A stretch of DNA of 49,369 bases, counting the filler, from Jimgerdemannia flammicorona (lineage: Eukaryota): assembly GCA_003990765.1 (NCBI GenBank). It is 2 parts of 2 records of this genome, joined end to end, with 100 filler letters (N's around TTAATTAATTAA, not from the genome) between each part and the next. Parts side by side here need not be neighbours in the genome. Positions count along the whole stretch, not along the records: positions 1 to 24,637 come from RBNJ01000948.1; 1 more part is not named here. One strand, written 5' to 3'. A program made the translations under genes and the position numbers. The notes below the pieces were generated by a model. It was not told the origin of the DNA. It saw nothing but the letters and a program-made list of their open reading frames with translations, and did no database searches. Shown piece after piece: positions 1,909 to 49,369 of this stretch. Numbering within the stretch: the stretch's first letter is position 1; each line of letters starts with the position of its first letter.

Positions 1909-3480
1909 TGTAACAGTGATCCCAGAATGATGATATCAGTATAGAAGACAGTCTTTCCTTACAAGCTACCAGATTGGAGCATAAGAAGATCATACAGTAT
2001 ATAAGATAAGCAATGATAACCAACTATAAGTCATTGTGACCACAGTATAGGCATCTTGAGGAATATAAAAGAAGGATCAAGGAACTGTAGTAGTAGCAAC
2101 CAATAAGACTCACCAATCTCAAAATAGCTCAAAGACTTATGTACTATAAATGAAATGTCTGCTGCTTGCCAAACCTCAAGGTCAAGAAACCACCAAGGTA
2201 CCTCAGTTGAAGAAAGGATATTACAAGACATCAGAAGAGCCATGAGGACTCACACAAGAAGGACTCCTAGTGTCAACCTGGGTACTAGTAACTCTTATCA
2301 TTATATTCTCTACTGCTGTGAAATGGAAACAAGGATCACTATTGCAACTAAATACCTCTAAATGTAGCAGGAGTACAAAATAAGAAACCTCCTCTACTGG
2401 GAGTTCCCACAGGCTAGCTCTCAAGAGTTACAAGATGCCACTTCCATGGATATATGTGAAATAAGAATAGCTAAGAAGATCTATCAGATCTTCAGGTATA
2501 TACCATAGTTGATCCCTAACTTGGAGTATGTTAGAGTCTCAGACTTTAGAGATCTATCAGCCTACTGTATCAATGTACTAGAAGCCAGGGTGGCTACAGA
2601 AGCCCAGTCCACTATCACCCTCAATAGTAATGAAGTAGAAGACTTCTGGCATCCCATCCTTCAGAACAACTCAGACCAATTCCTGCAAGGATTGATCTCA
2701 GTATTCCAAGGCCCAAGCATTCAGATTAGATCTCCCCAAGACCCCACATTTGTTCTCTATTTTGTAGAAGAGAAACTCATAGATTGAAGAGCCCTCAATT
2801 TCTCTGCCAAATGTAATAATATCATTGGTAATGACATTATCCCACATGACATATGCAAAATGTGTGACCTATATAATGACAACAAGATGGATGAAACATT
2901 TATAGACCTCATCTCCTTTGAAGACATCCTGACCTCAGATGAGAAAGAAGTCCCTATGGTCCTAAACATTCTGCTCTAAAGTCTCTTAGTTACACTGAAT
3001 TATGCCAGCACTCTTTTCCTGTATAACAGCTATTCCTTTACTGGTATTCTGATATGACTCAGAATTACATATTTCAGCACCATTTTCTTGTATCACTAAA
3101 ATTATACCAGTATTCTGAACCTATGCAACTATTAATGACAATACTGGAACTTAGCAGTTTCCTATATTTAGGTATTTTATTTTAGTTATTGGAATTTATA
3201 TTTAGCTTTATATCTTAGCAACCATTGAATTATATTTTGTATAAATACCCCTCTTATTTCCTCTGAAATAAAGTCAGTTCCTCTTAGTATAATATATACA
3301 ATTCCTTGCAAGTAATCTAAGAGATAACAAAACAGTTTAAAGATAAGAAGTTTGAGGACTATAAGATCTTGGGAAGGCACTCCAATAAAAACTTGCTTAT
3401 AACAAACTTGAGTTAGTCTAAGAGATACATCTTGAAGAGAATCTGATATATTTGAAGAACTCAGCAACCACTACATAACA
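1909..3480 (+). repeat. 5' LTR of A1
   Basis: TGTAACAGTGA...CACTACATAACA; homologous to 9192-10737, 17978-19469 and 47924-49361; TATAAATA near 3240. Confidence 0.93.
2155..2979 (+). pseudogene. U3-encoded ORF of family A (~275 codons, unknown function)
   Basis: ORF-track pieces 2155 and 2509 are in one frame up to the TAA at 2977; the same frame is seen in five LTR copies. Confidence 0.75.
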
Positions 3481-3483
3481 ACT

Positions 3484-3500
3484 TGGTGCCCATTGGCTGG
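3484..3500 (+). promoter_or_regulatory. primer-binding site of A1
   Basis: TGGTGCCCATTGGCTGG 3 nt after the LTR end; primer tRNA not identified. Confidence 0.75.
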
Positions 3501-3599
3501 TGATTCAAGACAAATCTCTCACTTTCAAGCTGAAAAATAAACAATTCCACAATAACTACCCTGACTATAAGAGTCACTCCTGCAAGAATTCAAGATAAG

Positions 3600-6500
3600 A
3601 TGGAAATGTATTCCCCTATATTCTATGGATATACTACTGAAGAGTCAATTGTGACCTTTATTGAAGACTTTGAATAATTTGCCACTATATAAGCCCTTAG
3701 TATGGATACACAATTGGCCCTTCTACTAGTCAGCCTCAGAGGACCTGTCAGAGATAAGTTCAATGCAGCCACTATTGCTAATAATAGTGCAGCCAAACTT
3801 GCCAACATGAAGGCCTTTCTCAGAATAACATACTATTCTGAAGAGATCAAGCAAGCTCTCAAGGATCAACTCAACACTATCTGTCAGAGACTCAGTGAAG
3901 ATCTCAACTTATTCTATACCTGAATCTGCCATCAGATTGTCTTGGCTGGCTATGATGATACTCTCAGGGAACAAATAGTGGATTCAACCTTTCTCAAAGG
4001 AGTTCACTCTGAAATTGCTCTAGCAATCTAGTCTATCCCAGCTACACTGACTCTTGATCAGAAAGTGGTCTTTATACAGAGATATTAGACTATCAGACAC
4101 TCTGCTGAATACTTAATGAAGAAAATAACTAGCATTAAGATAGAGCCATCAAAGCCAATTAGTATCATACCCACCATAGTTGTAAACAGACAACTATCCC
4201 CACCTACCCTCAAGATAACCAAAGCTGACTCAGTGGAGAAACTCACCAAGCAGTTTCCTGAGATAACTGCATACCTTGGTAATGTTGTTAGAGAAGTCCA
4301 AAGCACTAACAGGAGACCAGTACAGAGATTTGCAGCTACCACAGAAGAATGTAATATCATATACTTCAGATGTGGAGAAGAAGGCCATTATGCAAAGAAT
4401 TGCATAACCAAAATAAGATACAAAGCCTAATCAAGCAATACTAGTAGAACCAGAGAACAAACCAATACAGTAGTCATTGAGGAGATTAGTGACACTGATG
4501 ATGAAGAATACTATAAGGAGTTTGAATTCTATCCTGTTACTAAAGATATCAGAATCTGGTCCAAGCTCTATGATAAGAAGAGCAACAGCAAGCCAGTTGG
4601 AAGATTAAAGAAGACTCCAGCTATCATTATCTAAAGTAAGACCCAATCCGAGGAGATTGATCAAGACATGGAGTTAGAGAAAGCTGTTTGCCAAATCATT
4701 GAAGACACTACTCCAGTCTCAGGAGAAAGCAAAAGCAAGAAGAAATAGAAGCTGTACAAGACCAAGATTCACCAGTATGATATCTACAAGGACCTCAAGG
4801 AACAGAAGGTCAATACTACTTTTGGACAGCTAGCCAAAGTTTCTGCCTTCAGATAGCAGTTGAGAGTAAGACTTGCAACTACTACCAAGAATCACAAGTA
4901 CAAGATTGTAGAAGCTCACAATGTACAAGAAAATGATTAAGAAGACTCAGGTGAAGAATCTGAAGACTAGCATAAGACATCAGCCTATATCTCATATTAG
5001 ATCGAAGATTATATCTTTAATGCCATTATTGATACTAGTGCTGGAGGATGTCTCATAAGCAAGAAGGCAATTAACCACCTAGGCTGAGATATTGAAGAGT
5101 CTACTAAGATAGTCTATATCACAGCAGATGGTACATGAGCTACCCCTCTTGGCAAAATCTGAGAAGTCTCTATTAAGATAGGAGGAGCTACCATCTCAGT
5201 AGATGTGATTATTACAAGTACCACTAACTATGATATCCTTATTGGTAATTAATGGCTTCATAAGGTCAAGGCCATCATTGACCTCAATGCCCAGAAGATA
5301 TAGATCAACTATAGAGGAAGAAAGATACAAGTCTCTATCAATGTCCACAAAGGAGTTCTACTAAATATGGAGGAAGGAGATGAAGAGGACACAGAAGTCT
5401 TCATACACTTGGTGAATAAGAACAAGAACAAGACACCCAAGCTCACAGATGAGCAGTGGTACAACAAGATCATCAATAACTATACCTCTTAAGAAAGATG
5501 CCCCCATAGTACTAGGATGTACTGCTCTGAACACCTGAATGACTGCTGGTTCTGTATCAGTAAAGTCAGGAAAATCTGCCAACAAAAGTATAAGCAAGAA
5601 GTTGCTGAAGTAAAAAAGAAAGCTGAAGAAGATGACCAGCCCCCAGAGCTTCAAGCTGACAGTGATGATGAGGAGGAATAAGAATCAGACATTACCCTCA
5701 AAGTCAAGAAGTTTCACCCTGAAGCTAAGATCCCAGAATACAAGACTGAAAGAGCCATAGGAATGGACCTTGCTAGTATCCAAGATACTACCCTTGAACC
5801 ACAGACCACCACTCTACTTGGTACCAGAATTGGAGTCAAGTTGCCAGAGAACCATGCTGGAATTATCAAGACTAGGAGCAGTCTGGCCAAAAGCAAAATC
5901 TCAGTTAAAGGAGGAGTAATTGACTCTGATTACACTGGTGAGATCTTCCTCATAGTCAGGAATCACAACCCCACCACTCTATTCAAAGTCAAGAAGTATG
6001 ACAGGATTGGCCAGATGCTGATCTATGAAATCAAGAAGCTTAAGATTACTGAAGCCATTGAACTCATCAAGACCAAGAGAGAAGAATAAGACTTTGGATC
6101 TACTGGAAGAGGAGCCTATACCACTACCAAGATTACTGAACTTGAGCACAAGAAAGACAAGGACCAGAACAAGCACACATATACCATTGGAGAAAACTTT
6201 CCCCTGGAAGAACAACTTCTCAAGATCCTGTACCAGAATGAAGAAGTACTTGCTACAGACTTTAGGGATATCTATAATTAAGAACCTAAGTACTATCATG
6301 AAGTTGACACTGGCGATACCAAGCCCTTCTACCAGAAAGCCAGATATATACTACCTGCCTACAGAGAATGGCTATGAGCAGAACTCAAGGAAATGAAAGA
6401 AGCTGGAATTATTAAGCAAGCTATTAGTTCCTGGGCTTCACCCATTTGTCCTTACCTCAAAGAAAGGAAGTAAGCCTGGAGAGTTTGTACCAAGACTCTG

Positions 6501-7629
6501 CATTGATTACAGGAAGCTCAATACAATCACCAAGAAGGATAGGCAGCTCTTACCAAATATTCAAGAAATCCTTACCACCCTTGGAAGTGAAGCCAAATAC
6601 TATACCACCTTGGATTTGTTCTCAGGCTTCCATCAGATTGGTCTCACTCAAGATGCCAGTGAGAAATCAGCCTTCATCACATCTGATGCCACCTATATCT
6701 ATCTGTGAATACCATTTGAAATGTGTAATGCCCCAGCAAGTTTTCAGTAAATGATGAACAGAGTTTTCAGTAATGAGATTGGAAAATGGCTCTTTATCTA
6801 TGTTGATGATGTGATCATCTTCAGTAATACTGTATGGGAATATGTCAACCACATACAGCTAGTTCTCAAGAAGCTCAAAGAGTATGGCCTCTACATTAAG
6901 CCTAAGAAATATAAGTTTATAGCTCAGAAAATCACCTACCTAGGACACCTCATCAATCAGACCAGAATCCACACAGACCCCATGAAGATTGAGGCTGTTG
7001 TAGCCTACCCAAGACCCAGAACAACTACAGAAGTCCATATCTTCCTTGGACTGGCCAGCTACTACAGAAGATTCATCAAAGAATATTCCAACATTATAGT
7101 ACCTATCTATAAGCTACTGAAGAAGGAAACCAAATTTGAATGGACCAAAGAATACTAAGAAATCTTCAATGAACTCAAGACCAGATTGACCCAAGCACCT
7201 ATCCTCAGAAGACCAGATTGGAACCTAGAATTCATCCTGCAGACAGATGCAAGTACTATAAAACTTGGAGCAGTCCTAGCTCAGAAGAAAAATAGACATG
7301 AATATATCATCTCCTATGCAAGCCAAGGTATCCACAAAGCAGAACAAAACTACAAGTTATGTAAGCTTGAATACTTAGCAGTAGTTTGGGCAGTAGACAA
7401 GTTCCACTACTATCTAGCTAAGAAATACTTCACTATTCAAACAGACTATTCCACTCTTGCCTAGCTATTCCACACTCTGAATCCTAAAGGAATATATGTC
7501 AGATAGATCTACAGGCTGCAAGAGTATGACTGTACTATCAAGCACTACTCAGGGAGAACTAACATCAATGCTGATGCACTCTCAAGGATACTCCAAAACA
7601 CCCCCATCAAGACTATTCAATATAAATAA
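3600..7629 (+). pseudogene. single-frame Gag-PR-dUTPase-RT-RNase H polyprotein of A1 (stops, one frameshift near 6445)
   Basis: Zn knuckle (Y)FRCGEEGHYAKNC ~4362-4403; PR AIIDTSAGG ~5020-5048; RT YVDD ~6799; RH LQTDAS ~7240. Confidence 0.93.
5690..6110 (+). pseudogene. dUTPase domain between PR and RT (A1)
   Basis: Motifs AIGMDL, RSS, GGVIDSDYTGEI, RIGQ, R...FGSTG. Confidence 0.92.
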
Positions 7630-8878
7630 GGAGTTATACTATGGATTAATCAGCTATCTTGGGCAGTGAAAGATACCCAACCACCTTGAACTCTGGACAA
7701 TCACTATCATCAACCAGACTTGGAAACAGTTTGAACTAGATAACACTATACTCAGAAAAGGAGAAAAGCTTGTAATATCTAAATACAAGAAGTATCAAGT
7801 AATGAAGGAAGTATATGAGCAAGGATACCTAGGAGGAATCAATACATATAACAAGGTAAGAAGAACCATATGGTGGTCCAAGATGGAAGAAGACCTGTGC
7901 CAATTTGTCAAAAGGTGTGATAAGTACCAAAAACAGAAATAAGATCAGTAAGACCAGACATCCAGGTCATTAATAATTGAGTCTATTCTCTTCCACTATA
8001 TCATAATAGATATTATTGGGCCACTACCAGTAACACTATCAGAAAACTGCTATATTATAGTTATTGTAGATCTCTTTACTAAATAGATAGAAGCAGGAGT
8101 ATTACAAGAAGCCAATGCCCTCTCTATAGCTGACTTCCTGCACCAAGAAATCATCTGTCACTACAAGACACTAAAGAAAATCACTACAGACCATGGCACA
8201 GAATTTGTCAATGGATTCTATAAGATAATATATCAGAAATACAAGATTCAGTACATCAAGACCACTGTATATCACCCTCAAGGAAATAGACAGATAGAGA
8301 GAATCAATAAGACTCTCAAGAACATCCTGGTGAAGATCTCAGACACATATGAGAATTGAAATAACTACCTCCCAACTGCCCTCTCTGTCTTACAAGACAT
8401 ATGATCACAGAGTACACACTTTACCCCAAGAGAACTGCTCTTTGGAGAAGAAGATTCTGATGGAATCTCAGCCACAAATCTAGACTTAACTTACTTAACT
8501 TGAAGACAGGTTGACTCAGAAATCTGGAGACTACACCAAATCAGGACAAAGGCTGAAGATTACATCATTAAGTCACAAGTACTGATAAGGAAGAATGCAG
8601 AAAAGAATCACAAGACCCTAGAACCCATCCAAATCAGAGAAAAGGTCCTATTATATTGAAATATGATAGAAGCCTCATGGTCACAAAAACTGGAGCCCAA
8701 ATGAGAAGAACTCTTCTATGTACAAGATATCAAGAGAACTATCTTCTGACTTAGAAAAATCTCAGAGACCATACTGCTTACTATAGTATATAGGAACAGA
8801 CTCAAGAAATACCATAAACCTATATAAGAGAAGCAAAACATGATGACTACCCATGAGATTCTAGTTTTCAAATTATAA
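7622..8878 (+). pseudogene. integrase of A1, in a separate reading frame
   Basis: Degenerate HHCC region (WWSKM..D...FVKRCDK), DIIGPLP, VDLFTK, TTDHGTEF, YHPQGN..IER, GPY/F-like tail. Confidence 0.9.
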
Positions 8879-9181
8879 CAGCATGTCCCATGACCAGCAA
8901 GCTATCTGTCTGGATTATTCTCTAAGGGATACAGTACCAGCAACTACTCATCTGTGAGACTTTTGAAGCTAGAGGAGTTTGAACCATCAACTGATTGATT
9001 AAGATTAGAATTAGGCCCTTGCTCTATATGAAGAGAGTGATCCTTTACCATCATGCCAAAATACAAAGAGAAGATACCAGCCTATAAACACTACTTTTCA
9101 ACCCCTTGCCAGAGGTTATGGGATCAGCAAATTTTTCAGGACTGGACCAATAAATAAGGACATCTGAGAAGATCCTTATTC

Positions 9182-9191
9182 AGGAGAAAGA
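9182..9191 (+). promoter_or_regulatory. polypurine tract of A1
   Basis: AGGAGAAAGA abutting the 3' LTR; AGGAGGAAGA in copy A2. Confidence 0.8.
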
Positions 9192-10737
9192 TGGAATAGT
9201 GATCCCAGAATGATGACATCAGCACAGGAGACAGTCTTTCCTTACAAGCCACCAGATTGGAGCATAAGAAGATCATATGATATACAAGATGAGCAATGAT
9301 AACTAACTGTAAGTCATTATGACCACAGTACAGACATCTTGAGGAATATAAAAGAAGGATTAAGGAACTACAGTAGTAGCAACCAATAAGACCCACTAAT
9401 CCCAAAATAGCTCAAAGACTTATTATAAATAAAATGCCTACTGCTCACCAAACCTCAAGATTAAGGAATCACCAAGATATCTCAGTCAAAGAAAGAATGT
9501 TCTAAGACATCAGAAGAGCTATGAGGACTTATACAAGAAGGACTCCTAGTGTCAACCTGGATACTAGTGACTCTTATCATTATATTCTCTACTATCATGA
9601 AATGGAAACAAGGATCACCATTGCTACTGAATGCTTCCAAATGTGGCAGGAGTACAAAATAGAAAATCTCCTTTACTGGGAGTTCCCACAGACCAGCCCT
9701 CAAGAGTTACAAGATACTACTTCCATAGATATATGTAAAATAAGGACAGCTAAGAAGATCTATCAGATCTTCAGGCATTTACTATGGTTGATTCCCAACT
9801 TGGAGTATATTAGAGTCTCAGACTTCAGAGACCTGTCAGCCTGCTGTATCAATGCACTAGAAGCCAGGGTGACTACAGAAGCCCAGTCTACTATCACCCT
9901 TGACAGTGATAAAGTAGAAGACTTCTGGTATCCCATCCTCCAGGATAATCCAGACCAATTTCTGTAAGAATTGATCTCAGTATTCTAAGGCCCAAGCATC
10001 CAGGTTAGACCTCCCCAAGACCCCACATTTGTTCCCTATTTTGTGGAAGAGAACCTCATAGATTGGAGAGCCCCCAATTTCCCTACTGAATGTGATAATG
10101 TCATTCCATATAACATATGTGAAATGTGCGACCTATGTGATAACAATAAGATGGATGAAACATTTACAGATCTCATCTCCTTCAAAAACATCCTGATCTC
10201 AGATGAGGATTAAGCCCATATCCTGAACATTCTGCTTTAAAGTCTCTTGGTTACACTGAATTATATTGGCACTCTTTTTTTGTGTAATAGCTATTCCTTC
10301 ACCAGTATTCTGATATAACTCAGAATTATTCCAGCACTATTTTCCTGTATCATCAAAATTATACTAGCATTCTTAACCTGTGCAACCATCAATGCCAATA
10401 CTGGAACTTAGCAGTTTTCCATGTTCTGGTATTTTATTTTAGTTATTAGAATTTATATTTAGCTTTATATCTTAGCAATCATTGAATTATATTTTGTATA
10501 AATATCCCTCTTATTTCCTCTGAAATAAAGTCAGTTCCTCTCAGTGTAATACACATAATTTCTTGCAAGCAATCTAAGAAATAACAAGACAGTTTAAAGA
10601 TAAGAAGTTTGAGAACTATAAGACCTTAGGAAGGCACTCCAATAAGAACTTGCTTATAACAAACTTGAGTTAGTCTAAGAGATACACCTTGAAGAGAATC
10701 TGATATATTTGAAGAACTCAGCAACCACTATGTGATA
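9192..10737 (+). repeat. 3' LTR of A1
   Basis: Colinear with 1909-3480; mutated termini TGGAATAGTGA...TGTGATA. Confidence 0.92.
9434..10240 (+). pseudogene. U3 ORF copy in the 3' LTR of A1
   Basis: 148-aa open segment 9521-9967 in frame with the ATG at 9434. Confidence 0.75.
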
Positions 10738-10986: not shown

Positions 10987-11448
10987 TGTGACAGTTGGTC
11001 TGAATTAGTAATATGAATTAAGAGAATAGATATTTGATTACAGTATCTGAATCTGATTCCCAAATATAATATAGCCTTATGAATAGTAGTTATTTTACAA
11101 ATATTAAAGTTTTAATGAATATTAATATTTTCACAAATGTCAAGATTTTACAGATATTAAGGATTAATACTTATGAAAAGTGACTTATAGGAAACATAGT
11201 CATAACTTAGTTACCTTATAGCTAGTAAACTTGTATATATAAATATCTCTAGTATCTAGAGTGAATAAACCTCAGATCTAAATAGTTTAAAGTAAAGAGA
11301 AAACAAGAGAACTAGTAAGCCTGTAGGCAGATATACTTCAAACTAACCCACTCCTATATCCTGAGAACTCTATAGAGTTAAAGAAGATCAAGTTTTCAAG
11401 ATATAGAAATCTGATATACTTACACAGTTATATGACTACTATATTACA
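10987..11448 (+). repeat. putative short 5' LTR of element C (~460 bp)
   Basis: TGTGACAG after ATAT; ends TATTACA just before the PBS-like sequence; TATAAATA near 11238; partner LTR absent so the 5' edge is inferred. Confidence 0.55.
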
Positions 11449-11568: not shown

Positions 11569-14500
11569 ATGAGACTACCAATATTCCACAGATATACTTT
11601 AGATAAATCAATCATCACCTTCATTGTTAATTTTAAGCAATATGCTGCTATAAGAACTCTGACAGTAAGGCAGCAAGTAGTATTCATAACTATAACCCAT
11701 GTGAAAAATGATGACAATACTGTGCTGATAGTACAGAAGACCTGGCTTAAAGCTATCTACTATATAGACAAGATCAAGTAAGCTCTAAAGGATCAGCTCA
11801 ATACAATATATCAAGGAATGAGTAAAGATCTAAACACATTCTATATCAGAATTTGATATTAGATAATTTTTATAGATTATAATACTGCTATTAGAGATCA
11901 AGTAGCTAAGATAACCTTTATGAAGAGAGTCTACTCAGAGATAGTCATAGCCATCTGCTCATCACTAGTAGTTCTGGATCTGATATAGAAGGTTATCTAT
12001 ACTCAGTGATATTGAACAGTCAGACATCTACAAGACTATATAATAGAAAGAGTCATAGAGTTAAAATTGAAACACCTAAGGTAACCAGTATAATCTTTAC
12101 CACAGTGATCAATTAAAATATACCTCAACTAAGAGCTACTGAGTAGCAAAGAAACAATGATCTTATGGAGGAACTAGCTAAAAAGTTTGCTAAAATGACT
12201 GCCCACTTAGGAGATGTGGTAAAGGAAATCAGAGAAAGAGATTGCTATCCAGTTTAGAAGTTTGCTACTATCTCAGATAAGAAGAGAGATATCTGCTATA
12301 TTTGTAGAGAAGAAGACTACTACTTATATAAATATATAAGTGAAACTAAGTGCAAGATACAGCTAAGTAATATCACTCAGAATAGAGAACAGGTCAATAT
12401 CATTATCTTTAAAGAAATTAGAGAATCTGATAAAGAAGAATGAGAGGCCTATCCAGAACAGACTACTATGAAGGATATTTATAAAGAACTCTATAAGAGA
12501 CCACCAGAGATTCTTAAGAAGAACTCAGTGGAGAAATAGATGAAAACTGCTACAGAAGGCTAAGCTGAAGAAATAGATCAAGATATAGAGCTTGGGCAAG
12601 TAGTTCAAGATATTATTTGAGGAACTACTTCAGTTCCAGCCAGTAAAGAAGAAAAGAAAAGGAAGCTTTGCAAAATCAAGACCTTTAAGTATAATATCTT
12701 CAAGAATCTTAACTAATAAAAAGTTAATGCAATCTTTGGCCAGCTAGCAGAAATCCCCACATTCAGATAGCAAATAAGATATGGACTTGCTGAGATAACT
12801 AAGAAGCAAGGTTGGAAAATAACTGAGGTCAATAATGTTAAAGAAGACTTAGGAGAAGAAAGTGAAGACAATTGCAAAACCTCTGCCTATATAATCTATC
12901 AAATCAAAGATCAAATCTTTGAGGCCATCATTGACACTAGAGCAGGAGGATGCCTCCTTAGCAAGAAAGCAGCAGACCACCTAGATTGAGAGGTTGAAGA
13001 AGTAATTAAGTTAGTATTTATCACAGTAGATAGAATAAGAATCACATCTCTAGGAAAAATCTGAGATATCTCTATTAAGTTTGGAGGAGCAATCATCTCA
13101 GTAGATATTATTGTAACCAACACAACCATCTATAAAATTCTTATCAGCAACCAATAGCTTTATAAAGCCAGAGTAATAATCAATCTAAATGCTCAGAAAA
13201 TATAGATTCTCATCAATATTAATAAAGAAGTACTCTCTGAAATGAAGGAAGAAGAAAGTGAACAAGAAGAGGCCTAGAGTGACTATCTAGAAAAAGAAGA
13301 AGAAAGTCAGATAGATCAGTGAAGAGGACTGGTGTAAGTGAATTATTGAAGGATATATACTATAAAGAGTCTGCTCTCATGGAATCAAGATGTATTATAT
13401 AGAGTATATTAATAATTACTATTAGTGGATTAGTGGAATCAAGAAGATCTATCATGAAAGAAGACAAAAGGCTCTTGAGAAATAGGCAAGAGAAGAGAAG
13501 AAGGAGGAAGAGAATGACAAACCACCAGCTCTTCTGAAAGACAGTAATGATGAAGAGGAGATCAAGGTCAAGATTCAGAAAATCTACCCTAATATAGTCC
13601 TACCAGAATATAAGTCAGAGAATGTAGCTGGAATGGTATTGCTACAATAGAAGAAACTATACTTGAGCCCTAGATAACTACTCTACTTACAACTTGTCTA
13701 GAGATAACTATTCTAAAAGACTATATCAGAATCCTCAAGACAAGAAGCAGCCTGGCTAAAAGTAAGATTACTATTAAAAGAGAAGTTATTGATTCAGATT
13801 ATATTAGAGAAATACTACTCATTACTGAGAACTACAATCCTATAATTCCATTCCCAATTAAGAAGACAAACTAACTGGTACAGATATTAATCTTCTCAGT
13901 TCTTCAGTCAAAGATTATAGAAGTCAAGAAGTTGGAGAAAATAGAGACGAAAAAGAAGGGATTCAGATCCATAGAAAGAGGAGTATTCACTAGTACTAAG
14001 ATCACTAAACTGGACCACAAGAAGGAGAAAATATACAAACAAGCAAAGTTATACTATAGGAATCAAATTTCTACTCAAGAAGGAACTTGAGAAGATACTT
14101 TATAAATTTAAGAATATTCTGACCACAGATTTTAAGGATATCAAAGAGAAGGCCCCATACTACTATTATGATATAGATATAGAGAATACTGAACCAATCT
14201 ATCAAAAAGCAAGACCAATTCCACTAGCCTACTATGAATAGCTCAAAGAAGAAATCAAGTAGATGGAAGAAACTAGTATTATCAAAGAAATCAGTAGTTC
14301 TTGGGCTTCACCAGTTGCACTAGCTCCAAAAAAAGAAAGTAAATCAGAAGAATTCACTCCAAGGCTCTATACTGATTATAGGAAGCTCAATCTAACTACT
14401 AAGAAGAATTATCAACCACTACTCCTTATCAGTAACATCCTTATGACTCTGAGAGATAAATCACAGTATTATAGTACTTTAGATTTATATTCAGGATTCT

Positions 14501-15497
14501 ATCAAATCAGTCTTACAGAAGCAGTAAGTGAGAAGTGAGCCTTCATCATTTCAGATAGAACTTATATCTATCTGCAAATACTATTCAAAATATGCAATAT
14601 ACCAATAAGCTTCTAGTAAATGATGAACAAAATCTTCTGCTATAATATGAGAAGATGGATGATGGTTTATATGGATGAATTTATCATCTATAATAAAATA
14701 GCTGAAGAATATCTACAGTATATCCAGTAGATGATAGAGAAGCTAAGGAAGTATGACCTATATATTAAGTCCAAAAAGTGTAAGTTCATAGAAATTGAGA
14801 TCTCCTACCTTGGCTATATTATCAATCAAGATGGAATACATACAGATCCTCTCAAGATTCAAGTAGTAGTAATATATCCAAGGCTCACTACTATTACTGA
14901 AGCATAAGTCTTCATGAGACTCATCTTATACTATTATAGATTTATCAAAGAATTTCTCAATATTATAGAACTAATCTATGAACTCAATAAGAAGAATATC
15001 AAGTTCCAATAGACAGACAGACAATAAAAGGCATTTGATGAACTCAAGATCAGGTTGACTCAAGTATCCATTTTCAGAAGATCTGATTAAACTCAAGAAT
15101 TCAGCTTACAGATAAATATAAGTATATAAGAACTAGGAGCAGTCCTAGCTCAGAAGAAAGATAAAATAGAGTATATCATTATATATCTTAGTTGAAGAAT
15201 CTGAGGAGCTAAAAAGAATATGAATCCTATAAGTAGAAATGTTTTGCAGTTATCTGAGTTATAGAAAAGTTCTACTACTATCTTACTAGAAGATACTTCA
15301 CTATCCAGACAGACTATTCAGCCCTTATCTGACTACTGACCATCAGGTAACCCAAAGAAATCTATATCAGATAAATTATAAAGTTACAGGCATATGATGT
15401 AACTATCATATACTAACCTGGAAGAATTAATACTAATGTAGATACCCTATTACAGATATCTTAAAAGACCTCTAACCAACAAATCAATAATGAATAA
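11569..15497 (+). pseudogene. Gag-PR-dUTPase-RT-RH of element C
   Basis: MRLPIFH.. gag start like A; SSSWASPVALAPKK and YRKLN RT motifs; many stops and frameshifts. Confidence 0.85.
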
Positions 15498-16396
15498 GGA
15501 GCTTTACTATAGAATTACCATCTATCTGAGATAGTGAAAGATGCCCCAATATCTAAAAGAATAAATATAAATGATTATCAATAGAATATAGAAACAATTT
15601 AAAACTGATAGAGAAATATTGAAGAAAGGAAAACTACTAGTCATATCCAAATACAAGAAGGAGTAAGCAATAAAATCAGTATATGAACTCAGTCATCTAA
15701 GAGGAACAAATATCTATAAAAAAGTAAAAAGAACAATATGGTGGTCAGAAATAAAGAGAGATATCAGATGATTTGTCAAGACCTGTAACAAATACCAAAA
15801 ACAGAAACAAAATCATTAAATCAGACTCTGAGATCAGCATACATAGAACTAGTACTCTTTGCTCATATAGTAATAAATATAATTGGCCCTCTACTCTTGA
15901 CTTTGACTAGTAACTAATATATCATTATCATTGTAGACTATTTTATAAAATAGATAAAGACAGGATCTCTCAAAGAAGTCAATATATGGTTAATTGCTGA
16001 TTTCTTCTATAAAGAATTATCTGTTAATTCAAGACGTCATTATAAGTAACTACAGACAAAGAAACAGAATTTGTAAACTAGTTCTTTGAGGTTCTCTATA
16101 AGAAGTATAAGATTCTATATATTCAGACTATAGTCTATTACTCTTAAGAAAATAAATAAGTGGAAAGAACCAATAAGACTCTTAAGAATATTATCATCAA
16201 GATTTGCAATAACTATAAAAACTGAGATCACTATCTACCAATCGTATTATCTGCTCTCTAGGATATCTGATCATAAAGTATCTATTTTACACTATCAGAA
16301 ATACTATTTTGAGAAGAAAGTTCTTAAGGAATCCTATTATCCAATAGAGATACTATATTGAAATATATAGATATAGAGATATAGAATTATAAATAA

Positions 16397-16457
<61 letters not shown>

Positions 16458-16768
16458 GAGATATAGAGACTATACTAAATCAGAAAGAAGGCTAAGAATT
16501 ATATAACCAAGATACAGGCACTATAATGAAATAATGCAGAAAAGATTTACAAGCCTTTAGAGATTATCAAGATAAGAGATAAATACCTAGTATATATATC
16601 AGAACATATATAGTAGAAGCTTCATAGTCATAAAAGTTAAAGCCTAAGTGGGAAGAATCTTATCTTATATAAGATATAAAAGAAACCACCTTTTAGCTAT
16701 AAAAACTCTCCAATACAATCATCTCTACTATTATTTACTAAAACTGACTCAAGAAGTATCATAGCTAA
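15490..16768 (+). pseudogene. integrase of element C (separate frame)
   Basis: MNKELYY start, WWSE..CNK region, IGPL, VDYF, TTDKETEF. Confidence 0.8.
16371..16467 (+). mobile_element. ultra-truncated poly(A) retroposon insertion with 15-bp TSD
   Basis: ATATAGAGATATAGA (16371-16385) + ATTATAAATAAAT + A-run + ATATAGAGATATAGA (16453-16467). Confidence 0.85.
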
Positions 16769-17210: not shown

Positions 17211-17977
17211 ATAACTCATATGCTAGATATATCTATATATAATATATATATATACAAATATACATATATACATACAAACACATAAACACACATGTTGACA
17301 GATCAGTCTTCAACAGTTTATAGTACTAATGATGCTTCAAGTCAAATATCTTTGATAGTTCTACATCTTCCACAAAATCCTTGCTCCAAAATCTGATAAT
17401 ATTGTGCTAAGACAGAAGATGATGTTGTTTGTAACTATTGTAGATAAAAAATTAAGATGCATCTATTGATATAACTGATACTTTTTGTTTGATACATATA
17501 TAATACTGTTTCATCTACCCCCATAAACTGCATTAGCCAGAAGTTCAAAATGCTTGATGGTATGACTTCAAATATATATTGATATATAAAAGACAAGCAC
17601 TCTGGACAAAATCAAAAAGAACATAGAGATAAATAAAATTGACATCCAAGCTATAGTAAGTATATTTATCTAATTGCCTAACTATTTCTGTATCAACAAC
17701 CCCATTTAATCAAAAATATTTAGCCATACTCTTTAGCAGAATATCAAAATTAGCTCATTTGCTAGATTGTGTATACAGACCAGCTATTCACAACCATTGA
17801 GAGTGATCAATTGCATAGTATCTTTGGCCTCCTCAAGCATGATTTATATTTGTTAAGTACTGATACTATTTGCAAAGATATCCTGGAGGCCTATAGAAAG
17901 GAGCATGACAATCTCCACCAGATACTTCAGATAAAATAAGAGCAGTACTATAGACCTTTGCAAGTTGAATTATATAT

Positions 17978-19469
17978 TGTAACAGTGACCCCAGAATGAT
18001 GACATCAGCACTGGAGACAGCCTTTTCTTGCAAGCCACCAGATCAGAGCACAAGAAGATCATATAGCATATGAGATGAGCAATGATGACCAACTGTGAGT
18101 TATTGTGACCACAGCATAAGCATCCTGAAGAATATAAAAGAAGGATCAAGGAACTGTAGTAGCAGCAACAAATAAGAACCACCAATCCCAAAATAGCTCA
18201 AAGACTTACCACAAACAAAATGTCTGCTGCCTGCCAAACCTCAAGGTCAAGGAATCACCAAGGTATCTCGATCAAGGAAAGGATATTCCAAGACATCAGA
18301 AGAGCCATGAGGACCCACTCAAAAAGAACTCCTAGTGTCAACCTGGGTACTGCAGACCCTTATCACTTTATTCTCTACTGCCGTGAAATGGAAATAAGGA
18401 TCACTATTACTACTGAATGTCTCCAAATGTAGCAGGAGTATAAAATAGGAAACCTCCTCTGCCAGGAGTTCCCACAAGCCAGTACCCAAGAGCTACAAGA
18501 TGCCACTCCCATGGATATATGCAAAACAAGGATAGCTAAGAAGATCCATCAGATCTTCGGGCATGCACTATAGTCGATCCTCAACTTAGAGTATGTTAGA
18601 GTCTCAGACTTCAGAGACCTATCATTCTGCTGTATCAATGCACTAGAAGCCAGAGTGGCTACAGAAGCCTGGTCCACTATCACCCTCGATAGTGAAGAAG
18701 TAGAAGACTTCTGGTACCCTATCCTTCAGGATAACCCAGACCAATTCCTGCAAGGATTGATCTCAGTATTCCAAGGCCCAAGCATCCAGATTAGACCTCC
18801 CCAAGATCCCACATTTGTTCCCTATTTTGTGGAAGAGAACCTCATAGACTGGAGAGCTCCAGATCTTGTTCCCAATTTTCCCGCCATAGCCAAATGTAAT
18901 GATGTCATCCTGCGTGACATCGACATATACAAGACACATAATGAAGTACATGAAAATGATGAATTCACAGATCTCATCTCCTTCAGTAATGATGATGACA
19001 AGGATGAAGCTCCTATGGTCCTGAACTTTCTGCTCTAAGTTCTGTGTTACACTGGATAATGCCAGCACTGGTATTCTCATATAACACTGGATAATGCCAG
19101 TACCAGCATTTTGATGTGACACTAAATAATGCCAGTATTCTGAACCTGTACAACCATCAGTACCGACTCTGGAACTTAGTAGTTTTAGTTATTGGAATTT
19201 ATATTTAGCTTTATATCTTAGCAACCATTGAATTGTATTTTGTATAAATACCCTTCTTATTTCCTCTAAAATAAAGTCAGTTCCTCTCAGTACAATACAC
19301 ACACTTCCTTGTAAGCAATCTAAGAGATAACAAGACAGTTAAAGATAAGAAGTTTGAGGACTATAAGACCTTGGGAAGGCACTCCAATAAGAACTTGCTT
19401 ATAATAACTTGAGTTAGTCTAAGAAGAGAATCTGGCGTATTTGAAGGACTCAGCAATCACTACGTGACA
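17978..19469 (+). mobile_element. solo LTR of family A with ATAT target-site duplication
   Basis: TGTAACAGTGA...TCACTACGTGACA with ATAT on both sides; no PBS or PPT adjacent; hAT transposase continues on both flanks. Confidence 0.93.
18220..19038 (+). pseudogene. U3 ORF in the solo LTR (273 codons, no frameshift)
   Basis: Only two in-frame stops (18430, 18571), both TAG where copy A2 has TGG. Confidence 0.8.
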
Positions 19470-21059
19470 ATATATATATTTATAAAGAGCTTACCAATTT
19501 AACCTCACATTCAATAAGTAGAATTTGGCAGGCAAAATTTTATTTATAATTGACACATAGATATCTCCCAATGCAATTTCATTTCTGGGCATTATCAGTA
19601 ATTGGATTGATCTTAATTAGTAGCTTAAATCTCTCACTCTTGACTTCATCAAACTTGCTGACCCTTATTCTAGAGAAAATATCACAGATACTTTTATTAG
19701 TTATATCTGGAAGCTTGGGATCACAACCAAGGTAAAAAGGGGGGATTGCCATCAGATCAGTATTTTGAGAGAGATCCTAAAACAAACAGATTTTATTGGT
19801 TATTTATTTTCACTCAAGTACAGATTTTGGCCATTATGACAGACAATATTACAAACAACTTAACATTTTTTGAAGTTTTAGCAGATAGCCTCAAATAGGA
19901 AAATGTGACCTTCAGTACAGAAAGCTATTATGTATAATGTCAGGCCCATATACTAAACCTCACTGTTCAGGACTATCTTATATATATAGACAAAACATCC
20001 AAGAGAGGAGGGGCCTAGAGTATAGTTTCTAAGCTACACAAACTGGTTGTATGTATCAGTCCAATTATCTCCACAATGATGAGACAAATTCACTATACAG
20101 TATAGGACAATCAGTTTAGCTCTGAATGAGCTGATATTGGATATCTGTATGTGTTGGAACTCAACATTTGCAATGATTCAGTGTGTGCTGGAGTTTGCTA
20201 TAGTATGTGTTCTTTTTTTTTTTCAGTCAGCTGAAGCAACTTATTTCAGATGATTGAGGATTTTATTTATTTTTTTGTAAACAAAAAAACAAAACAAACC
20301 AATAGATTCAACAGTTGCTACCAACAAAGAAATGTAGAGTGAGGTACTAGGTGAAAGTGAGTGGGATGTACTTAGGAATATAGTCAGAGTTTTGAAAGTA
20401 AGTAGTGATTGCTCTAGCCCCATACTTATTTTGTCTGCCTCTATATAATATAATACCTCACTACACATAACTGACAGTGTTTTGATGATTATACAAAGGA
20501 TATAGTCAAACAAATGACCCTGACAATAAGCTCTGCAATACCAGTATACAACCTTTTGATTGACCAGCTAGAGGACAAGCTCAAGGACAGGCTGGTGGGT
20601 TGTGGTAATTTATGGTTAAGCTTAGATCAGAGAGATACCATGGAGATTACTCTAAGCAAGTTTAGAAAATACTACTCCAAAACAGATACTGCTGTATACT
20701 CAATCAGTATAGGTATATTGGTGTGTGGCTGTTACCTCTTCCAAACAGAGAAATCTCTACAAAAACTCACTCTATTTTCTCTAAACAGTACTGGACCCAT
20801 ACTTAAAGCTATAATACTATAAAGATCAGAGCTGGGAGCAGCACTTCATTGAGGAAACCAAGCAGACTATAATTAAAATGTATCAGAAAAACTACATGCT
20901 ACTGCAAGGTTCTGGCTGAAGTCTGAATGAATATACCAAGAAATCCCTCCTGTCTCACATTTACTTCAGTAGAAAGAAGAAGAGAGAGCTATCAGTAGAA
21001 GAGCTGCCATCAATAGATGAACTCACTATTTATCTTACCAGCAATCACATGATTCTGCT

Positions 21060-22375
21060 GGAACCAGTATACATTCAGAATCACCACCCGCCCCACCAGG
21101 GAAATGTGATGACCCCCCCAACCTTTTAGAGCCTCCCCCCAAATGTCCACTCTCCTCTCCTACCACACCTATGGCAGGACTGATCTATATACAGAGAGGA
21201 AGATACCGAGATACTGCACCACCTCTCTTGTGGGGACAATTATTCCAATGACATCCCCTCCCATTAGCCCATTTCCCAACATCATTGTCTCACATTTATG
21301 CTAGTTGAGCCTTGCTCCAGAGTGTGCCTCATACCACTCCACTGTTTCCCGAAGAGCCTCTACATCTGCTACTAATCTAAGTCCAACTACCATATTATCT
21401 GCAAAGGCCCCCACCTTCCACTCCACACCATACACAGAGAGCCCAGCCACCCTCCTACGGATCCTATCCATTAAAGGTTCCAAGGAGAGTGCAAAAAGAA
21501 TAGGGGACAGCAGGTCCCCTTGAGGGACTCCCCTCCCCAAGGGGAACACCAAACCCCTGTGACCATTACACAACAGCGCTGCTCTACTCCCTTCCAACAA
21601 ACTTAACATAGAGGCCTGAAACTGTGGCGGAACACCAATTCTGTCCAGCACCTTGTCCAGCCAAACCCACCAAACACAGTCGTAGGCCTTCTCCTGGTCC
21701 AAAAAAACCAGTCTACCATCCAGTCCACAGGCCTGGGCTCCTTCAATAATGTCATGCACCCAGGCAGTTCCATCTCTGATAAGCCTACTGCCTACAAAGC
21801 CCTGCTGCTTCTCACCCAGCACCTGTTGGGCAACCTTCTGTAGCCTCACAACAATCACCTTAGTCACCAACTTCTGATCCATATCCAGAAGCATGATTGG
21901 TCTCCAATTCTTCCAATTCTCACACCTGCTCTTATCTTTGTACAATAGTGCCACCAGCCCTAAGTCCTGCTCCCCAACCCACATGCCATTTAGAATAACA
22001 TAGTCACAGAGGGCAGCCATCTCTTCCAGTATTCCAGGGACTTTTGCCATCTTCTTCCAGAAGTCCCATGGTAACTCATCCTCCCCAGGTGCTGTCCCAA
22101 GCTTAGTTGCTGCCAGAACTCCTTGAATCTCCTCCTCTTGGACTGGTAAGATCAGATCACCCAGTCCCTCTACCTGCAGTGGCTCCCACTCCTCCAGTGT
22201 GCTACCAATCACCTCTGCATCAGTACCCCCTTCTTCCTCACTCCACAGACCCCGCCAATTCTCCTTCAATACTCCCAGGATCTGCTGCATACCATGCACC
22301 AACTCTCCCTCAGCATCAAAGACCCCATCTCACTGATGTCTCACTCACCTGGCTTTGAGGAGCCTAGACAAGTAC
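21060..22375 (-). mobile_element. internal RT fragment of an L1/Tx1-like LINE
   Basis: 333-aa ORF with APGEDELP, NWRPIMLL, QQGFV, FLDQEKAYD, GVPQGDLLSPILF, FADN; diverged relative of 24738-30605; no poly(A). Confidence 0.9.
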
Positions 22376-23589
22376 TGTAAGAGGGTTGCTTTTTAGGATA
22401 ACCATTACATAGTTCTGGAAAGGTTTTCTGGAGGTTCTGGATATTCTAGAAGACTGTTTTCTTATGGTCAAGATCAATTTCATATGGAGTACGTCCTCTA
22501 TGCTTATTGATTTCAAGATCGGGTTGATGTCTCAACCAAAGTCCTTTTTCGGACTAGTTCTGGATGTTCAGGATTTTCCGTATTTCAGGAAGTTCAAGAA
22601 ACTAAGACCAGCTTTGTTGAATTGGTGTATTGCTGCAGACAGTACCCAATTAGGAAATTTCATGACAGTGGTCATTGTCCCAATAAGTCTCATATGTAGT
22701 TATGAACTGTTGTAAGTTCATTGGCAAGGTTGGCGGAGTGATCAGGGTTGGCAGAGATCCTTGGCTAGAGGTCATGTTGGCATCAGAGGGATCATTGTCT
22801 TCTGCTTTATCTTCATCGAAGTGGATTATATCGTAGATATCCTTCATGGCGTATCCTACTTAGGGCATTTGCAGGATTTGATCATTGGGGTGTGGGAAGG
22901 TTCTGTCTGTGGTTTTGATGTACTCAAGGTACTTGTGGTTGAGTTCTTGTATCACATCATCGATTTGGCCATAGGACAGGGTAGCAACCATTTCACTGAT
23001 AGTAACTCGGAGGTGGGGAATAATGGTACTGTACTCATAGAAGAGTTCTCGATGTTTGCAGGTGATGAGCTTCTGGTGTTGAGACATCTGGATAATATCT
23101 GTATCGTGGTGGTGTTCGACCATGTCTTCCAGGAGGTGGCTGATCTGGTAGTAGCTTGAGATTTGTCTGATTCGGTGGGCCTCGCTAAGCATGTTCAGAG
23201 CATTCCATCGGGCTTCTATGAAGTAGAGGGGTGCTAGGCTATGGATATTCATGAGGGGCAGAGGGGGTGTGGCTTGGTTGACAATGGCATTCCAAATGTC
23301 AGCATGGATATGGTTGTAGATCTCAGTGGTCATATTTGTGTGTTTGGAAGTTGTGGTTGTTGTTTGTTTTGGTTCTCTGATTCGACGCATCTTGGTGCTC
23401 GGTATATATGCATTTGGTCCTAATTGGTAAGGTTCCGTTTGTGTAAATCTTGTGTTCCGTGACTTCATATTGACTCATCTTTGTGCACTGTGACTTTGGT
23501 TTGACTCAGCTTCGTGATCAAGCAGGTGATTTCCAGATTTGTTTGGAGGTCACGTGTAATTTCGGTGGCTTGGAGGTTGTGCGCTTACA
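22376..23589 (-). repeat. 3' LTR of B2 with ~820-bp internal deletion
   Basis: TGTAAG...CTTACA termini; junction near 22660 joins positions equivalent to ~34213 and ~35035. Confidence 0.88.
22650..23333 (-). pseudogene. N-terminal part of the family B U3 ORF
   Basis: ORF-track 22860-23468 and 22650-22847 are in one frame; ATG at 23333 is conserved in all three B LTRs. Confidence 0.75.
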
Positions 23590-24637: not shown

Positions 24638-24737
24638 NNNNNNNNNNNNNNNNNNNNNNNNNNNNNNNNNNNNNNNNNNNNTTAATTAATTAANNNNNNN
24701 NNNNNNNNNNNNNNNNNNNNNNNNNNNNNNNNNNNNN
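24638..24737. other. assembly gap with artificial TTAATTAATTAA linker
   Basis: 100-position N run with a central 12-mer giving stops in all six frames. Confidence 0.95.
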
Positions 24738-28447: not shown

Positions 28448-28478
28448 AAGAGAGATTATATAGTTCCAGATGCACCCT

Positions 28479-30512: not shown

Positions 30513-30610
30513 GATACTAGTAGCTTGTCTCCAGAAACTATATCAAAAGTGTTGCCAAAAGATTGTGTAACCTGAATGTTACCAGAGAAAGATGGCATGC
30601 CTCAATATAT

Positions 30611-31339
30611 TTATTATACATCTCGCGTATGTTGATGTCACGTGGGATGATGTCATCGCTGATAACATCATCACGTTTGGCTGTGGTGGGAAAATCAGAA
30701 ACAAGATCTGGAGCTCTCCAGTCTATGAGGTTCCCTTCCACAAAATAGGGAACAAATATGGGGTCTTGGAGAGGTCTAACCTGGATGCTTGGGCCTTGGA
30801 ATACTGAGATCAATCCTTGCAGGAATTGGTCTGGGTTGTTCTGAAGGATAGAATGCCAGAAGTCTTCTACTTCTTCACTGTTGAGGGTGATAGTGAACTG
30901 GGCTTCTGTAGCCACCCTGGCTTCAAGTGCATTGATACAGTGGGATGATAGGTCTCTGAAGTCTGAGACTCTAACATACTTCAAGTTGGAGATTGACCAT
31001 GATGCATGCCTGAAGATCTGATGCATCTTCTTAGCTGTCCTTGTTTCATATATATCCATGGGAGTGGCATCTTGTAGCTCTTGGGTGCTGGCTTTTGGGA
31101 ACTCCTGGCAGAGGAGGTTTCCTATTTCATACTCCTGCCACATTTGGAGGCATTCAGTAGCAATAGTGATCCTTGTTTCCATTTCATGGTGGTAGAGAAT
31201 GAAGTAATAAGGGTCTGCAGTAACTAGGAGTCCTTCTTGAGTAAGTCCTCATGGCTCTTCTGATGTCTTGGAACATCCTTTCCTCAACCGAGATACCTTG
31301 GTGATTCCTTGACCTTGAGGTTTGGCGTGCAGCAGGCAT
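30611..31339 (-). pseudogene. U3 ORF in the A2 3' LTR
   Basis: ~190 uninterrupted codons from 31182; small deletion near 31222. Confidence 0.78.
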
Positions 31340-31581
31340 TTTGTTTATGGTAAGTCTTTGAGCTATTTTGGGATTAGTGGTTCTTGTTGGTGGCTACTAC
31401 TGCAGTTTCTTGATCCTTCTTTTATATTCTTCAGGATACTTGTACTGTAGTCACAATGACTCACAGTTGGTCATCATTGCTCATCTCATATACCATATGA
31501 TCTTCTTGTGCTCCAATCTGGTGGCTTGCAAGGAAAGGCTGTCTCCTGTGCTGATATCATCATTCTGGGGTCACTGTTACA
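30611..31581 (-). repeat. partial 3' LTR of A2
   Basis: PPT AGGAGGAAGA (31582-31591) then TGTAACAGTGA; homology stops near 30611 at the LINE. Confidence 0.9.
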
Positions 31582-47803: not shown

Positions 47804-47923
47804 CTTATCTTGAATTCTTACAGGGGTGACTCTTGTAGTCAGGGTAGTTGTTGTGGGGGTTGTTTGTTTTTCAGCTTGAAAGTGAGAGATTTACCTTGAA
47901 TCACCAGCCAATGGGTACCAAGT

Positions 47924-49361
47924 TGTCATGTAGTAGTCACTGAGTCCTTCAAATATACCAGATTCTCTTCAAGGTGTATCTCTTAGACTAACTCAAGTTT
48001 GTTATAAGCAAGTTCTTATTGGAGTGCCTTCCCAAGGTCTTATAGTCCTCAAACTTCTTATCTTTAACTGTCTTGTTATCTCTTAGATTGCTTGCAAGAA
48101 AGTGTGTATATTGCACTGACTTTATTTCAGAGAAAAAAAGAGAGGTATTTATACAAAATATAATTCAATGGTTGTTAAGATATAAAGCTAAATATAAATT
48201 CCAATAACTAAAACTACTAAGTTCCAGAGTTAGTACTGACAGTTGTACAGGTTCAGGATGCTGGCATTATTTAGTATTACATCAAAATGCCAGTGCTGGA
48301 ACAATTTTATATCACCTCAGAATACTGGTGTTGGCATTATCCAGTGTTATACATATGAGAATACTAGTGCTGGCATTATCCAGTATAACACAGAACTCAG
48401 AGCAGAAAGTTTAGGACCATGTGAGCTTCATCCTTGTCATCATCATCACTGAAGGAGATGAGATCTATGAATTCATCATTTTCATGTGCTTTGTTATACA
48501 TCTCGCATATGTCGATGTCACATGGGATGACATCATTGCCGATGACATCATCACATTCAGCTATGGTGAGAAAATCAGAAATAAGATCTGAAGCTCTCTA
48601 GTCTATGAGATTCTCTTTCACAAAATAGGAAACAAATGTAGGGTCTTGGGGAGGTCTAACCTGGATGCTTGGGCCTTGAAATACTGAGATCAATTCTTGC
48701 AGGAATTGGTCTGGGTTGTCCTGAAGGATAGGATGCCAGAAGTCTTCTACTTCTTTGCTGTTGAGAGTGATAGTGGACTGGACTTCTGTAGCCACCCTGG
48801 CATCTAGTGCATTGATATGGCAGGATAATAGATCTCTGAAGTCTGAGACTCTAACATACTCCAAGTTGGGGATTGACTATGGTGCATGTCTGAAGATCTG
48901 ATGGATCTTCTTAGCTGTCCTTGTTTCACATATATCCATGGGAGTGGCATCTTGTAGCTCTTGGGTGCTGGCTTGTGGGAACTCCCAGCAGAGGAGGTTT
49001 CTTATTTTGTACTCCTACCACATTTGGAGGCATTCGGTAGCAATGGTGATCCTTGTTTCCATTTTATGGCAGTAGAGAATGAAGTGATAAGGGTCTGCAG
49101 TACCCAGGTTGACACTAGGAGTCCTTCTTGAGCAGGTCCTCATAGCTCTTCTGATGTCTTGGAACATCCTTTCCTTGACCGAGATACCTTAGTGATTCCT
49201 TGACCTTGAGGTTTGGTATGCAGCAGGCATTTTATTTATGGTAAGTCTTTGAGCTATTTTGGAATTGGTGGTTCTTATTGGTTGCTGCTACTGCAGTTCC
49301 TTGATCCTTCTTTTATATTCTTCAGAATGCTTGTACTGTGGTCACAATGACTCACAGTTGG
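47924..49361 (-). repeat. 5' LTR of A2, cut near the window end by a T-run
   Basis: Ends CTACATGACA followed by ACT-TGGTACCCATTGGCTGG (PBS 47904-47920). Confidence 0.92.
48397..49230 (-). pseudogene. U3 ORF in the A2 5' LTR (278 codons)
   Basis: ATG 49230 to TGA 48397 in one frame, a few premature stops. Confidence 0.78.
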
Positions 49362-49369
49362 TTTTTTTT

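Follow-up and report, generated by a model that had tools for sequence, protein, structure and literature searches.

The long terminal repeats (LTRs) of family A, a high-copy Ty3/gypsy family of the fungus Jimgerdemannia flammicorona, carry a real accessory gene that lies wholly in U3, begins 242 nt inside the LTR and has been kept by purifying selection during replication of the element. Once integrated, copies decay neutrally by C-to-T change, and this includes solo LTRs such as the family member at 17978-19469 on which this analysis centres. The encoded protein belongs to an undescribed family (no Pfam, PDB or fold match) that is found in an unusual place and is shared among gypsy lineages of one fungus. 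Our overall reading, offered tentatively and with a little less than even confidence, is that of a selected U3 accessory gene with a TATA box of its own, whose product would be a nuclear, self-activating regulator.

The window (the whole 49,369-nt stretch analysed, from an assembly of 231 Mb in 35,354 contigs) consists of two contigs and an artificial linker at 24638-24737, in which 88 N flank a 12-nt all-frame stop word. The contigs meet only through this linker, so the ORF copies at 31339 and 49230 cannot be counted as neighbours of the remaining three. The genome gave 88 matches to the Zn2Cys6 family, in keeping with a fungus, and 18 to Sel1; FAS_meander gave 0, in a search without a working control. 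The features on which the argument rests are collected in Table 1. The carrier has the hallmarks of Ty3/gypsy elements, namely gag, the order PR-RT-RNase H-integrase, direct repeats with TG..CA ends, a PBS, a PPT and a target-site duplication (TSD). No chromodomain is visible after integrase in the decayed family A translation, which leaves the family outside the chromoviruses as defined by that domain. Its dUTPase (Pfam, 5682-6089) is placed between PR and RT, behind the protease, whereas that of family B (approximately 40400-40100, minus strand) stands ahead of the protease in translation.

Table 1. Features of family A in the window. Positions count along the whole stretch.
Feature	Position	Strand	Remarks
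Solo LTR, family A, 1492 nt	17978..19469	+	TG..CA ends; ATAT on either side; no adjoining PPT or PBS
Target-site duplication, ATAT	17974..17977 (left), 19470..19473 (right)		4 bp, perfect
Accessory ORF, 272 codons	18220..19038	+	Codons 71 and 118 are premature TAG; start context rich in A
Conserved ORF part, codons 1-213	18220..18858	+	Basic N terminus, then predicted helical domain; no shared indels
Variable acidic tail	18859..19038	+	Frame-keeping indels; two short conserved hydrophobic motifs
Upstream TATA-like box, candidate ORF promoter	18133..18139	+	Motif in 83/90 aligned copies; in the stretch formerly read as 'EEYKRR'
Downstream TATA box, candidate genomic-RNA promoter	19243..19250	+	79/90 copies; same block in ORF-less LTRs
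AATAAA poly(A) signal	19270..19275	+	About 27 nt below downstream TATA; 77/90 copies
5' LTR of full-length family A element	1909..3480	+	ORF copy 2155-2979, 4 stops; PBS from 3481
Decayed gag (CCHC)-PR-dUTPase-RT-RNase H-integrase region	3481..9191	+	Pfam zf-CCHC, dUTPase, RVT_1; translation; PPT at 3' end
3' LTR of the same element	9192..10737	+	ORF copy 9434-10240, 4 stops; TSD GTAT/GTGT
Truncated 3' LTR, second contig	30610..31581	-	Preceded by PPT; 11-nt frameshift deletion in ORF copy, which starts at 31339
5' LTR, second contig	47921..49363	-	PBS behind; LTR start cut by contig end; ORF copy 49230-48397, 834 nt, 4 stops

Several other elements share the window. A relative of family A (approximately 65% DNA identity in gag-pol, similar PBS) occupies 10987-11448 and 12562-16763; its LTR at 10987-11448 (462 nt) has a TATA-AATAAA block and no ORF, and the element at 12562-16763, whose 3' end is missing, may have carried an internal ORF. 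Elements of non-LTR type at 21064-22333 and 26014-30300 (minus strand) adjoin the truncated LTR copy at 30610 and contain RT (by Pfam, at 21304-22329) together with endonuclease-like and 589-codon ORF1-like frames. Decayed frames at 20241-20822, near the solo LTR, resemble a hAT transposase but have no Pfam match.

The first-pass annotation had described an ORF that keeps its frame in five copies of the LTR. Four do: those starting at 2155, 9434, 18220 and 49230 (minus strand) have the 825, 807, 819 and 834 nt reported, start with ATG, end in the same xLL-stop and fall into two C-terminal types. The fifth, at 31339 (minus strand), has its frameshift near codon 39 and, being truncated, ends near codon 245. 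The premature stops of the four (4, 4, 2 and 4, respectively) are indeed sense codons in other copies. Copies 2155 and 9434 come from the two LTRs of one insertion, and four lengths divisible by 3 are in themselves weak evidence; it is the family-wide tests below that put the signal far beyond chance. An extension of the frame upstream to the ATG at 18082, which had also been proposed, has to be abandoned. It is closed by two stops common to nearly all copies, across subfamilies; among 82 copies with 200 nt or more of upstream sequence, a single one has an open in-frame upstream ATG; and the stretch above the ORF, which holds the TATA-like box, gives no sign of coding selection (pN/pS 0.87, CI 0.21-4.81). 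Homologues from metagenomes start at the same Met as the family A ORF.

How many copies are still intact depends on how they are sought. DNA searches of the genome returned 3647 and 3694 first-look candidates, which are not copy numbers; 40 of each were scored and 30 of each fetched. Stop-free copies are rare among the DNA-selected loci, which comprise a solo type (S) and an A type, internal stops being absent from 2 of 29 S-type and 0 of 26 A-type copies. The length of the ORF is divisible by 3 in 22/29 S-type and 19/26 A-type mapped loci (3 A-type loci unmapped). A protein search of the genome, which is biased to good copies, gave 75 stop-free matches among the 125 listed, and 15 of its 26 mapped loci are open from end to end (3 divergent and 1 unmapped locus excluded).

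Selection was measured by comparing real copies pairwise and subtracting divergence within groups from that between them, using 31 S and 30 A copies picked by DNA search. Net divergence between the subfamilies was 0.071 for pS and 0.017 for pN, a ratio of 0.23 (bootstrap CI 0.13-0.40). The neutral control, made up of four LTR pairs of single elements that have diverged only since insertion (1909-3480 and 9192-10737, L065/L067, L072/L073 and L013/L018), gave 0.73; a further pair, L007/L016, was excluded from it for its 65 transversions and chimeric end. Within S copies, pN/pS was 0.88. The signal is specific to the frame: in a subsample of 14 versus 14 copies, the ratio was 0.27 in the ORF frame, 0.57-2.77 in the other five frames and 0.92-1.63 in the part of the LTR behind the ORF. 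Divergence at the three codon positions was 0.119/0.088/0.146 in the ORF versus 0.161/0.150/0.140 outside it, and 63 copies had a mean of 2.9 stops per 213 codons in frame, the two remaining plus-strand frames averaging 9.3 and 10.6. Among 90 aligned LTRs, 16 of the 21 shared indels (those in at least 3 copies) that fall inside the ORF have a length divisible by 3, versus 1 of 25 outside (Fisher p 3e-7), the events on the alignment not being fully independent. All of the shared indels inside the ORF lie in the tail and none in codons 1-213; some tail indels are in GAT and 15-nt repeats, whose slippage produces lengths divisible by 3 even if selection is absent. Single-copy indels inside the ORF are random (12/35 multiples of 3). 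The past selection that had been surmised from frame-preserving indels is thus backed by the pN/pS, codon-position and indel tests, and also by the open frames of metagenome homologues. An integrase control was uninformative, since the integrase sequences do not divide into the subfamilies seen in the ORF (net pS 0.014). On the same family A 3' LTR copies, the ORF subfamilies have a net pS of 0.063-0.070 versus 0.014 for the adjacent integrase, and the ORF separates the young subfamilies Y1 and Y2, whereas the sequence behind it shows no difference between them.

Decay after insertion consists almost entirely of transitions. The LTRs at 1909-3480 and 9192-10737 have diverged by 12%, by 175 transitions versus 11 transversions, and across LTR pairs the C-to-T decay was 0.73 at CpG, 0.31 at CpA, 0.27 at CpC and 0.04 at CpT, which covers a wider range of contexts than deamination of CpG. 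Mapping of 56 family A LTRs at both ends identified 25 as 3' LTRs, 18 as 5' LTRs and 13 as solo; the solo LTRs have perfect 4-bp TSDs in 10 cases and a single mismatch in the remaining 3. That every solo LTR deposits a whole ORF, as had been claimed, is correct in extent, since all 13 span the ORF, but not in coding capacity: only 3 of the 13 lack internal stops, and 1 of these 3 keeps the ATG. No sign of selection after deposit was seen in the 13 solo LTRs among the 56 mapped. With the ORF and its apparent promoter both inside the terminal repeat, each repeat left behind would amount to a whole gene, though mostly a decayed one.

The protein is conserved well beyond family A. Searches of metagenome proteins returned 6 and then 12 matches among 5.8 billion clusters and 5 among 1.84 billion representatives, all of them open frames on short contigs, unnamed or 'hypothetical', with identities from 77% down to about 30%. 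Of two loci found in metagenome contigs, L061 is real and L062 was discarded as a spurious match; no relative was found in viral contigs (0/106 stretches). Within this genome, homologues down to about 30% identity are present in at least three more families. Family A2 (3 loci) is 55-59% identical to P0010. Family C (123 scored matches) has the ORF approximately 207 nt inside the LTR and an integrase like that of family A. Family D (118 scored matches; protein 35-43% identical to A) is a chromovirus, with integrase and chromodomain upstream in 7/7 loci with more than 800 nt of flank, and its PPT and TG follow directly behind the ORF stop. Of 20 family D LTR loci, 6 have the ORF before the PPT, 10 are ORF-less with 1 kb of unrelated left flank, and 4 were too short or unmapped; the LTR itself retains the TATA-AATAAA block, while the upstream TATA and the ORF are outside it. 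The same gene is therefore internal in D and within the LTR in A, A2 and C. In family A the PPT stands in front of the gene, which places the gene in U3, and in family D it stands behind, which leaves the gene internal; the position of the PPT decides between the two placements.

A 250-290-nt DNA block just after integrase is common to A2, C and D at 77-84% and was not found in family A. Such sharing suggests that lineages have exchanged their 3' regions, and comparison of subfamilies suggests that ORF variants, too, have been exchanged across integrase backbones. The block (about 980-1270 in L165, with matching stretches in L150, L158 and L031) holds a short conserved reading frame of approximately 45 codons and a word resembling a tRNA B-box; an Rfam search of four loci gave one chance match only and none to the block.

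Family B, a chromovirus (Pfam Chromo) with an LTR of approximately 2.1 kb, has a 365-codon ORF at 35702-34605 (minus strand) in the same layout, with further copies near 43284-44380 and 22860-23300 (both minus strand). Its length is kept in 22/24 loci, and mean stops are 4.3 in frame versus 17 and 36. The first 130 residues align with the A-C-D profile almost without gaps (hhalign probability 17%, E 0.0015), and best-domain scores of 10 copies (mean 9.4, maximum 11.6 bits) compare with maxima of 10.1 for 2000 whole and 8.2 for 2000 local shuffles. From these comparisons, the family B ORF is likely to be a remote homologue of that of family A. The B protein is without a basic N terminus, and its predicted model (pLDDT 31.5) is unusable. 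CCAAT and TATA-like words stand upstream of the ORF, which has one metagenome homologue (63%).

An LTR promoter downstream of the ORF had been noted before, and the downstream TATA is indeed present, with AATAAA 15-30 nt behind it in 77 of 90 copies; that account was incomplete, in that a second TATA-like box lies above the ATG. In A, A2, the metagenome locus L061, C and D, a TATA-like word precedes the ATG by 62-87 nt without an intervening ATG. These five sequence types have little DNA likeness and include one in which the gene is internal, although TATA-like words abound in AT-rich DNA such as this, and the match in position should be weighed accordingly. In family B the pattern used gave no match, yet TATATA occurs at a like distance above the ATG. 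Given the TATA-like box above the ORF, each LTR probably carries a promoter, the ORF and a poly(A) signal, and the motifs suggest that an LTR has two promoters and that its R is short. Transcription of the ORF would start from its own TATA, close to the 5' end of its LTR, and stop at the AATAAA of the same LTR, and any LTR could thus give a separate mRNA of approximately 1.1 kb, while genomic RNA would begin below the second TATA; on the positions of these motifs, we regard this scheme as probable.

The protein itself offers fewer clues. AlphaFold2, given 31 sequences, produced a modest model (pLDDT 58, pTM 0.52) with predicted helices over residues 18-185, two short strands near 200-212 and a disordered tail (pLDDT below 50, 216-271). 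The first 40 residues have a net charge of +5 to +8, and the tail one of -7 to -11 per 40 residues. Most A-type proteins have in the tail the motifs FxxL[IL] and PxxLNFxL, which are missing from family C and which we presume to resemble acidic activation domains. Pfam gave no family for four ORF proteins and one weak match among 16 members (E 0.23), and PHROGs one weak match of 16. A PDB sequence search gave nothing at E 10, the best Atlas score (0.83) was below threshold, and Foldseek with the modest model found no match in the PDB or BFVD at E 0.001. In the VIA fold comparison, the best Z was 4.4, and the Z of 3.3-3.9 for Sin3 chains is taken to reflect a common helical arrangement. No known DNA-binding motif was seen in the protein. 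An env-like role was rejected, as there is no transmembrane stretch (maximum 19-residue hydropathy 0.64-1.07 in four proteins).

The explanation that we prefer is that the protein would act in the nucleus and raise the expression of its own element, as a trans-activator or an anti-silencing factor. The basic N terminus and helical core would serve nuclear import and binding of nucleic acid or chromatin, and the acidic tail with its short hydrophobic motifs would recruit host machinery. Resting on a predicted model and on analogy, such a role is a possibility that we put somewhat below an even chance, and the more specific proposal of a nuclear regulator resembling foamy-virus Tas, with a basic N terminus, helical core and acidic tail, is likewise held only tentatively. 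The same layout of basic and acidic ends also fits RNA-export or chaperone proteins, and the protein could act on RNA in the manner of Rev or CERV, an arginine-rich N terminus binding genomic RNA for export, stability or packaging. Full-length A-type proteins have 8-11 Lys/Arg within the first 50 residues, CERV of Cer1, a Ty3/gypsy element, provides a precedent (PMC10309623), and the post-integrase block of A2, C and D could be a response element. Against this stand the failure to find that block in family A and, if family B is homologous, the lack of a basic N terminus there, and an RNA factor appears unlikely. We also think it unlikely that the protein is a general counter-defence factor, directed at host RNAi, DNA methylation or heterochromatin and away from the element's own promoter. 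The heavy C-to-T decay of copies, which implies strong host silencing, would suit such a factor, as would a gene common to distant lineages whose ORF variants seem mobile across integrase backbones, but the core is under strong purifying selection with no sign of positive selection, and no likeness to a known suppressor was found. If the upstream TATA were the main promoter, R would extend to approximately 1.1 kb and the genomic RNA would have the ORF as its first cistron, in the manner of an ORF0, so that the ORF would not be a separate U3 gene. The two boxes are conserved to a similar extent (83 versus 79 of 90), but the family D LTR keeps its TATA-AATAAA block with the upstream TATA and ORF outside it, the related 462-nt LTR has that block only, and the AATAAA of the 5' LTR would shorten such an RNA, all of which renders this arrangement quite improbable. 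Chance opening of the frame is largely refuted by the pN/pS and indel tests, and it is scarcely credible that the frame is a relic with no function or arose merely from a low density of stops and slippage in triplet repeats: just 2 of the 55 DNA-selected copies are free of internal stops and tail indels do fall in triplet-like repeats, but the frame-specific pN/pS is far below the neutral control, 213 codons are free of shared indels, and conservation of the protein can be followed down to about 30%, beyond the point at which DNA can be aligned.

The LTRs of retrotransposons are regarded as non-coding sequence, and a solo LTR as either a promoter or an inert scar. In the present case, U3 of several abundant fungal gypsy families contains a protein gene under past selection, and the natural pair of in-LTR and internal versions shows how such a placement arises. 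Were the nuclear trans-activator or anti-silencing reading to hold, a fungal retrotransposon would possess a retrovirus-style regulatory gene, which could in part account for the repeat expansion in this 231-Mb assembly. A bolder proposal is that of a regulator cassette (promoter, gene and poly(A) signal) traded between chromoviral and non-chromoviral gypsy lineages of one fungus, moved into the LTR or out of it by a shift of the PPT, with solo LTRs that trans-activate or unsilence relatives. This we consider rather unlikely; if true, in-LTR placement would make each solo LTR an autonomous gene, and recombination between LTRs would remove the element but not its regulator.

In full-text searching, outside of which most subscription papers fall, no fungal retrotransposon emerged whose LTR was described as containing an entire protein gene; PMC2864245 depicts additional ORFs, of no assigned function, in fungal elements, and these may bear on novelty. 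Additional ORFs (aORFs) of LTR retrotransposons are located in the internal region, up- or downstream of gag-pol (PMC7264820). Examples are gene23 of Grande, with its own promoter and a nuclear product, and ORF0 of Retrosat2 (PMC7264820; PMC3485330). Like aORFs, the family A gene is an extra ORF present in most copies of the family and conserved as protein, and the family D gene is at the usual site, between pol and the 3' LTR. It differs from them in that the gene of A, A2 and C (and B) lies wholly in the LTR, with only D in the internal region, and in that the family A gene is in sense orientation and not env-like. CERV of the C. elegans element Cer1 is a small regulatory protein, neither Gag nor Pol, that is made from a spliced mRNA and exports RNA (PMC10309623). 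The family A protein, too, is small, belongs to neither Gag nor Pol and is encoded by an element of the Ty3/gypsy type, and a regulatory role is proposed for it by analogy, but no homology between the two was found.

The closest parallels in gene arrangement are retroviral. In MMTV, the whole sag/naf ORF lies in U3 of a long LTR, is present in both LTRs and is accompanied by a second U3 promoter, P2, upstream of the main one (PMC9412291). The family A ORF resembles sag in being wholly in U3, the upstream U3 promoter being here a candidate motif; it differs in its fungal host and Ty3/gypsy carrier and in having no Pfam or PDB match and no transmembrane stretch. MMTV Sag is a membrane glycoprotein. 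Foamy-virus Tas has an internal promoter and a C-terminal acidic activation domain (PMC517496). No homology to Tas/Bel1 was found here, either in Pfam or in fold searches with the modest model, and the likeness is one of organization: a 3'-end accessory gene with a promoter of its own, here a candidate, and a C-terminal acidic region. Tas lies mostly upstream of the LTR and, at about 300 aa, is similar in size to the family A protein.
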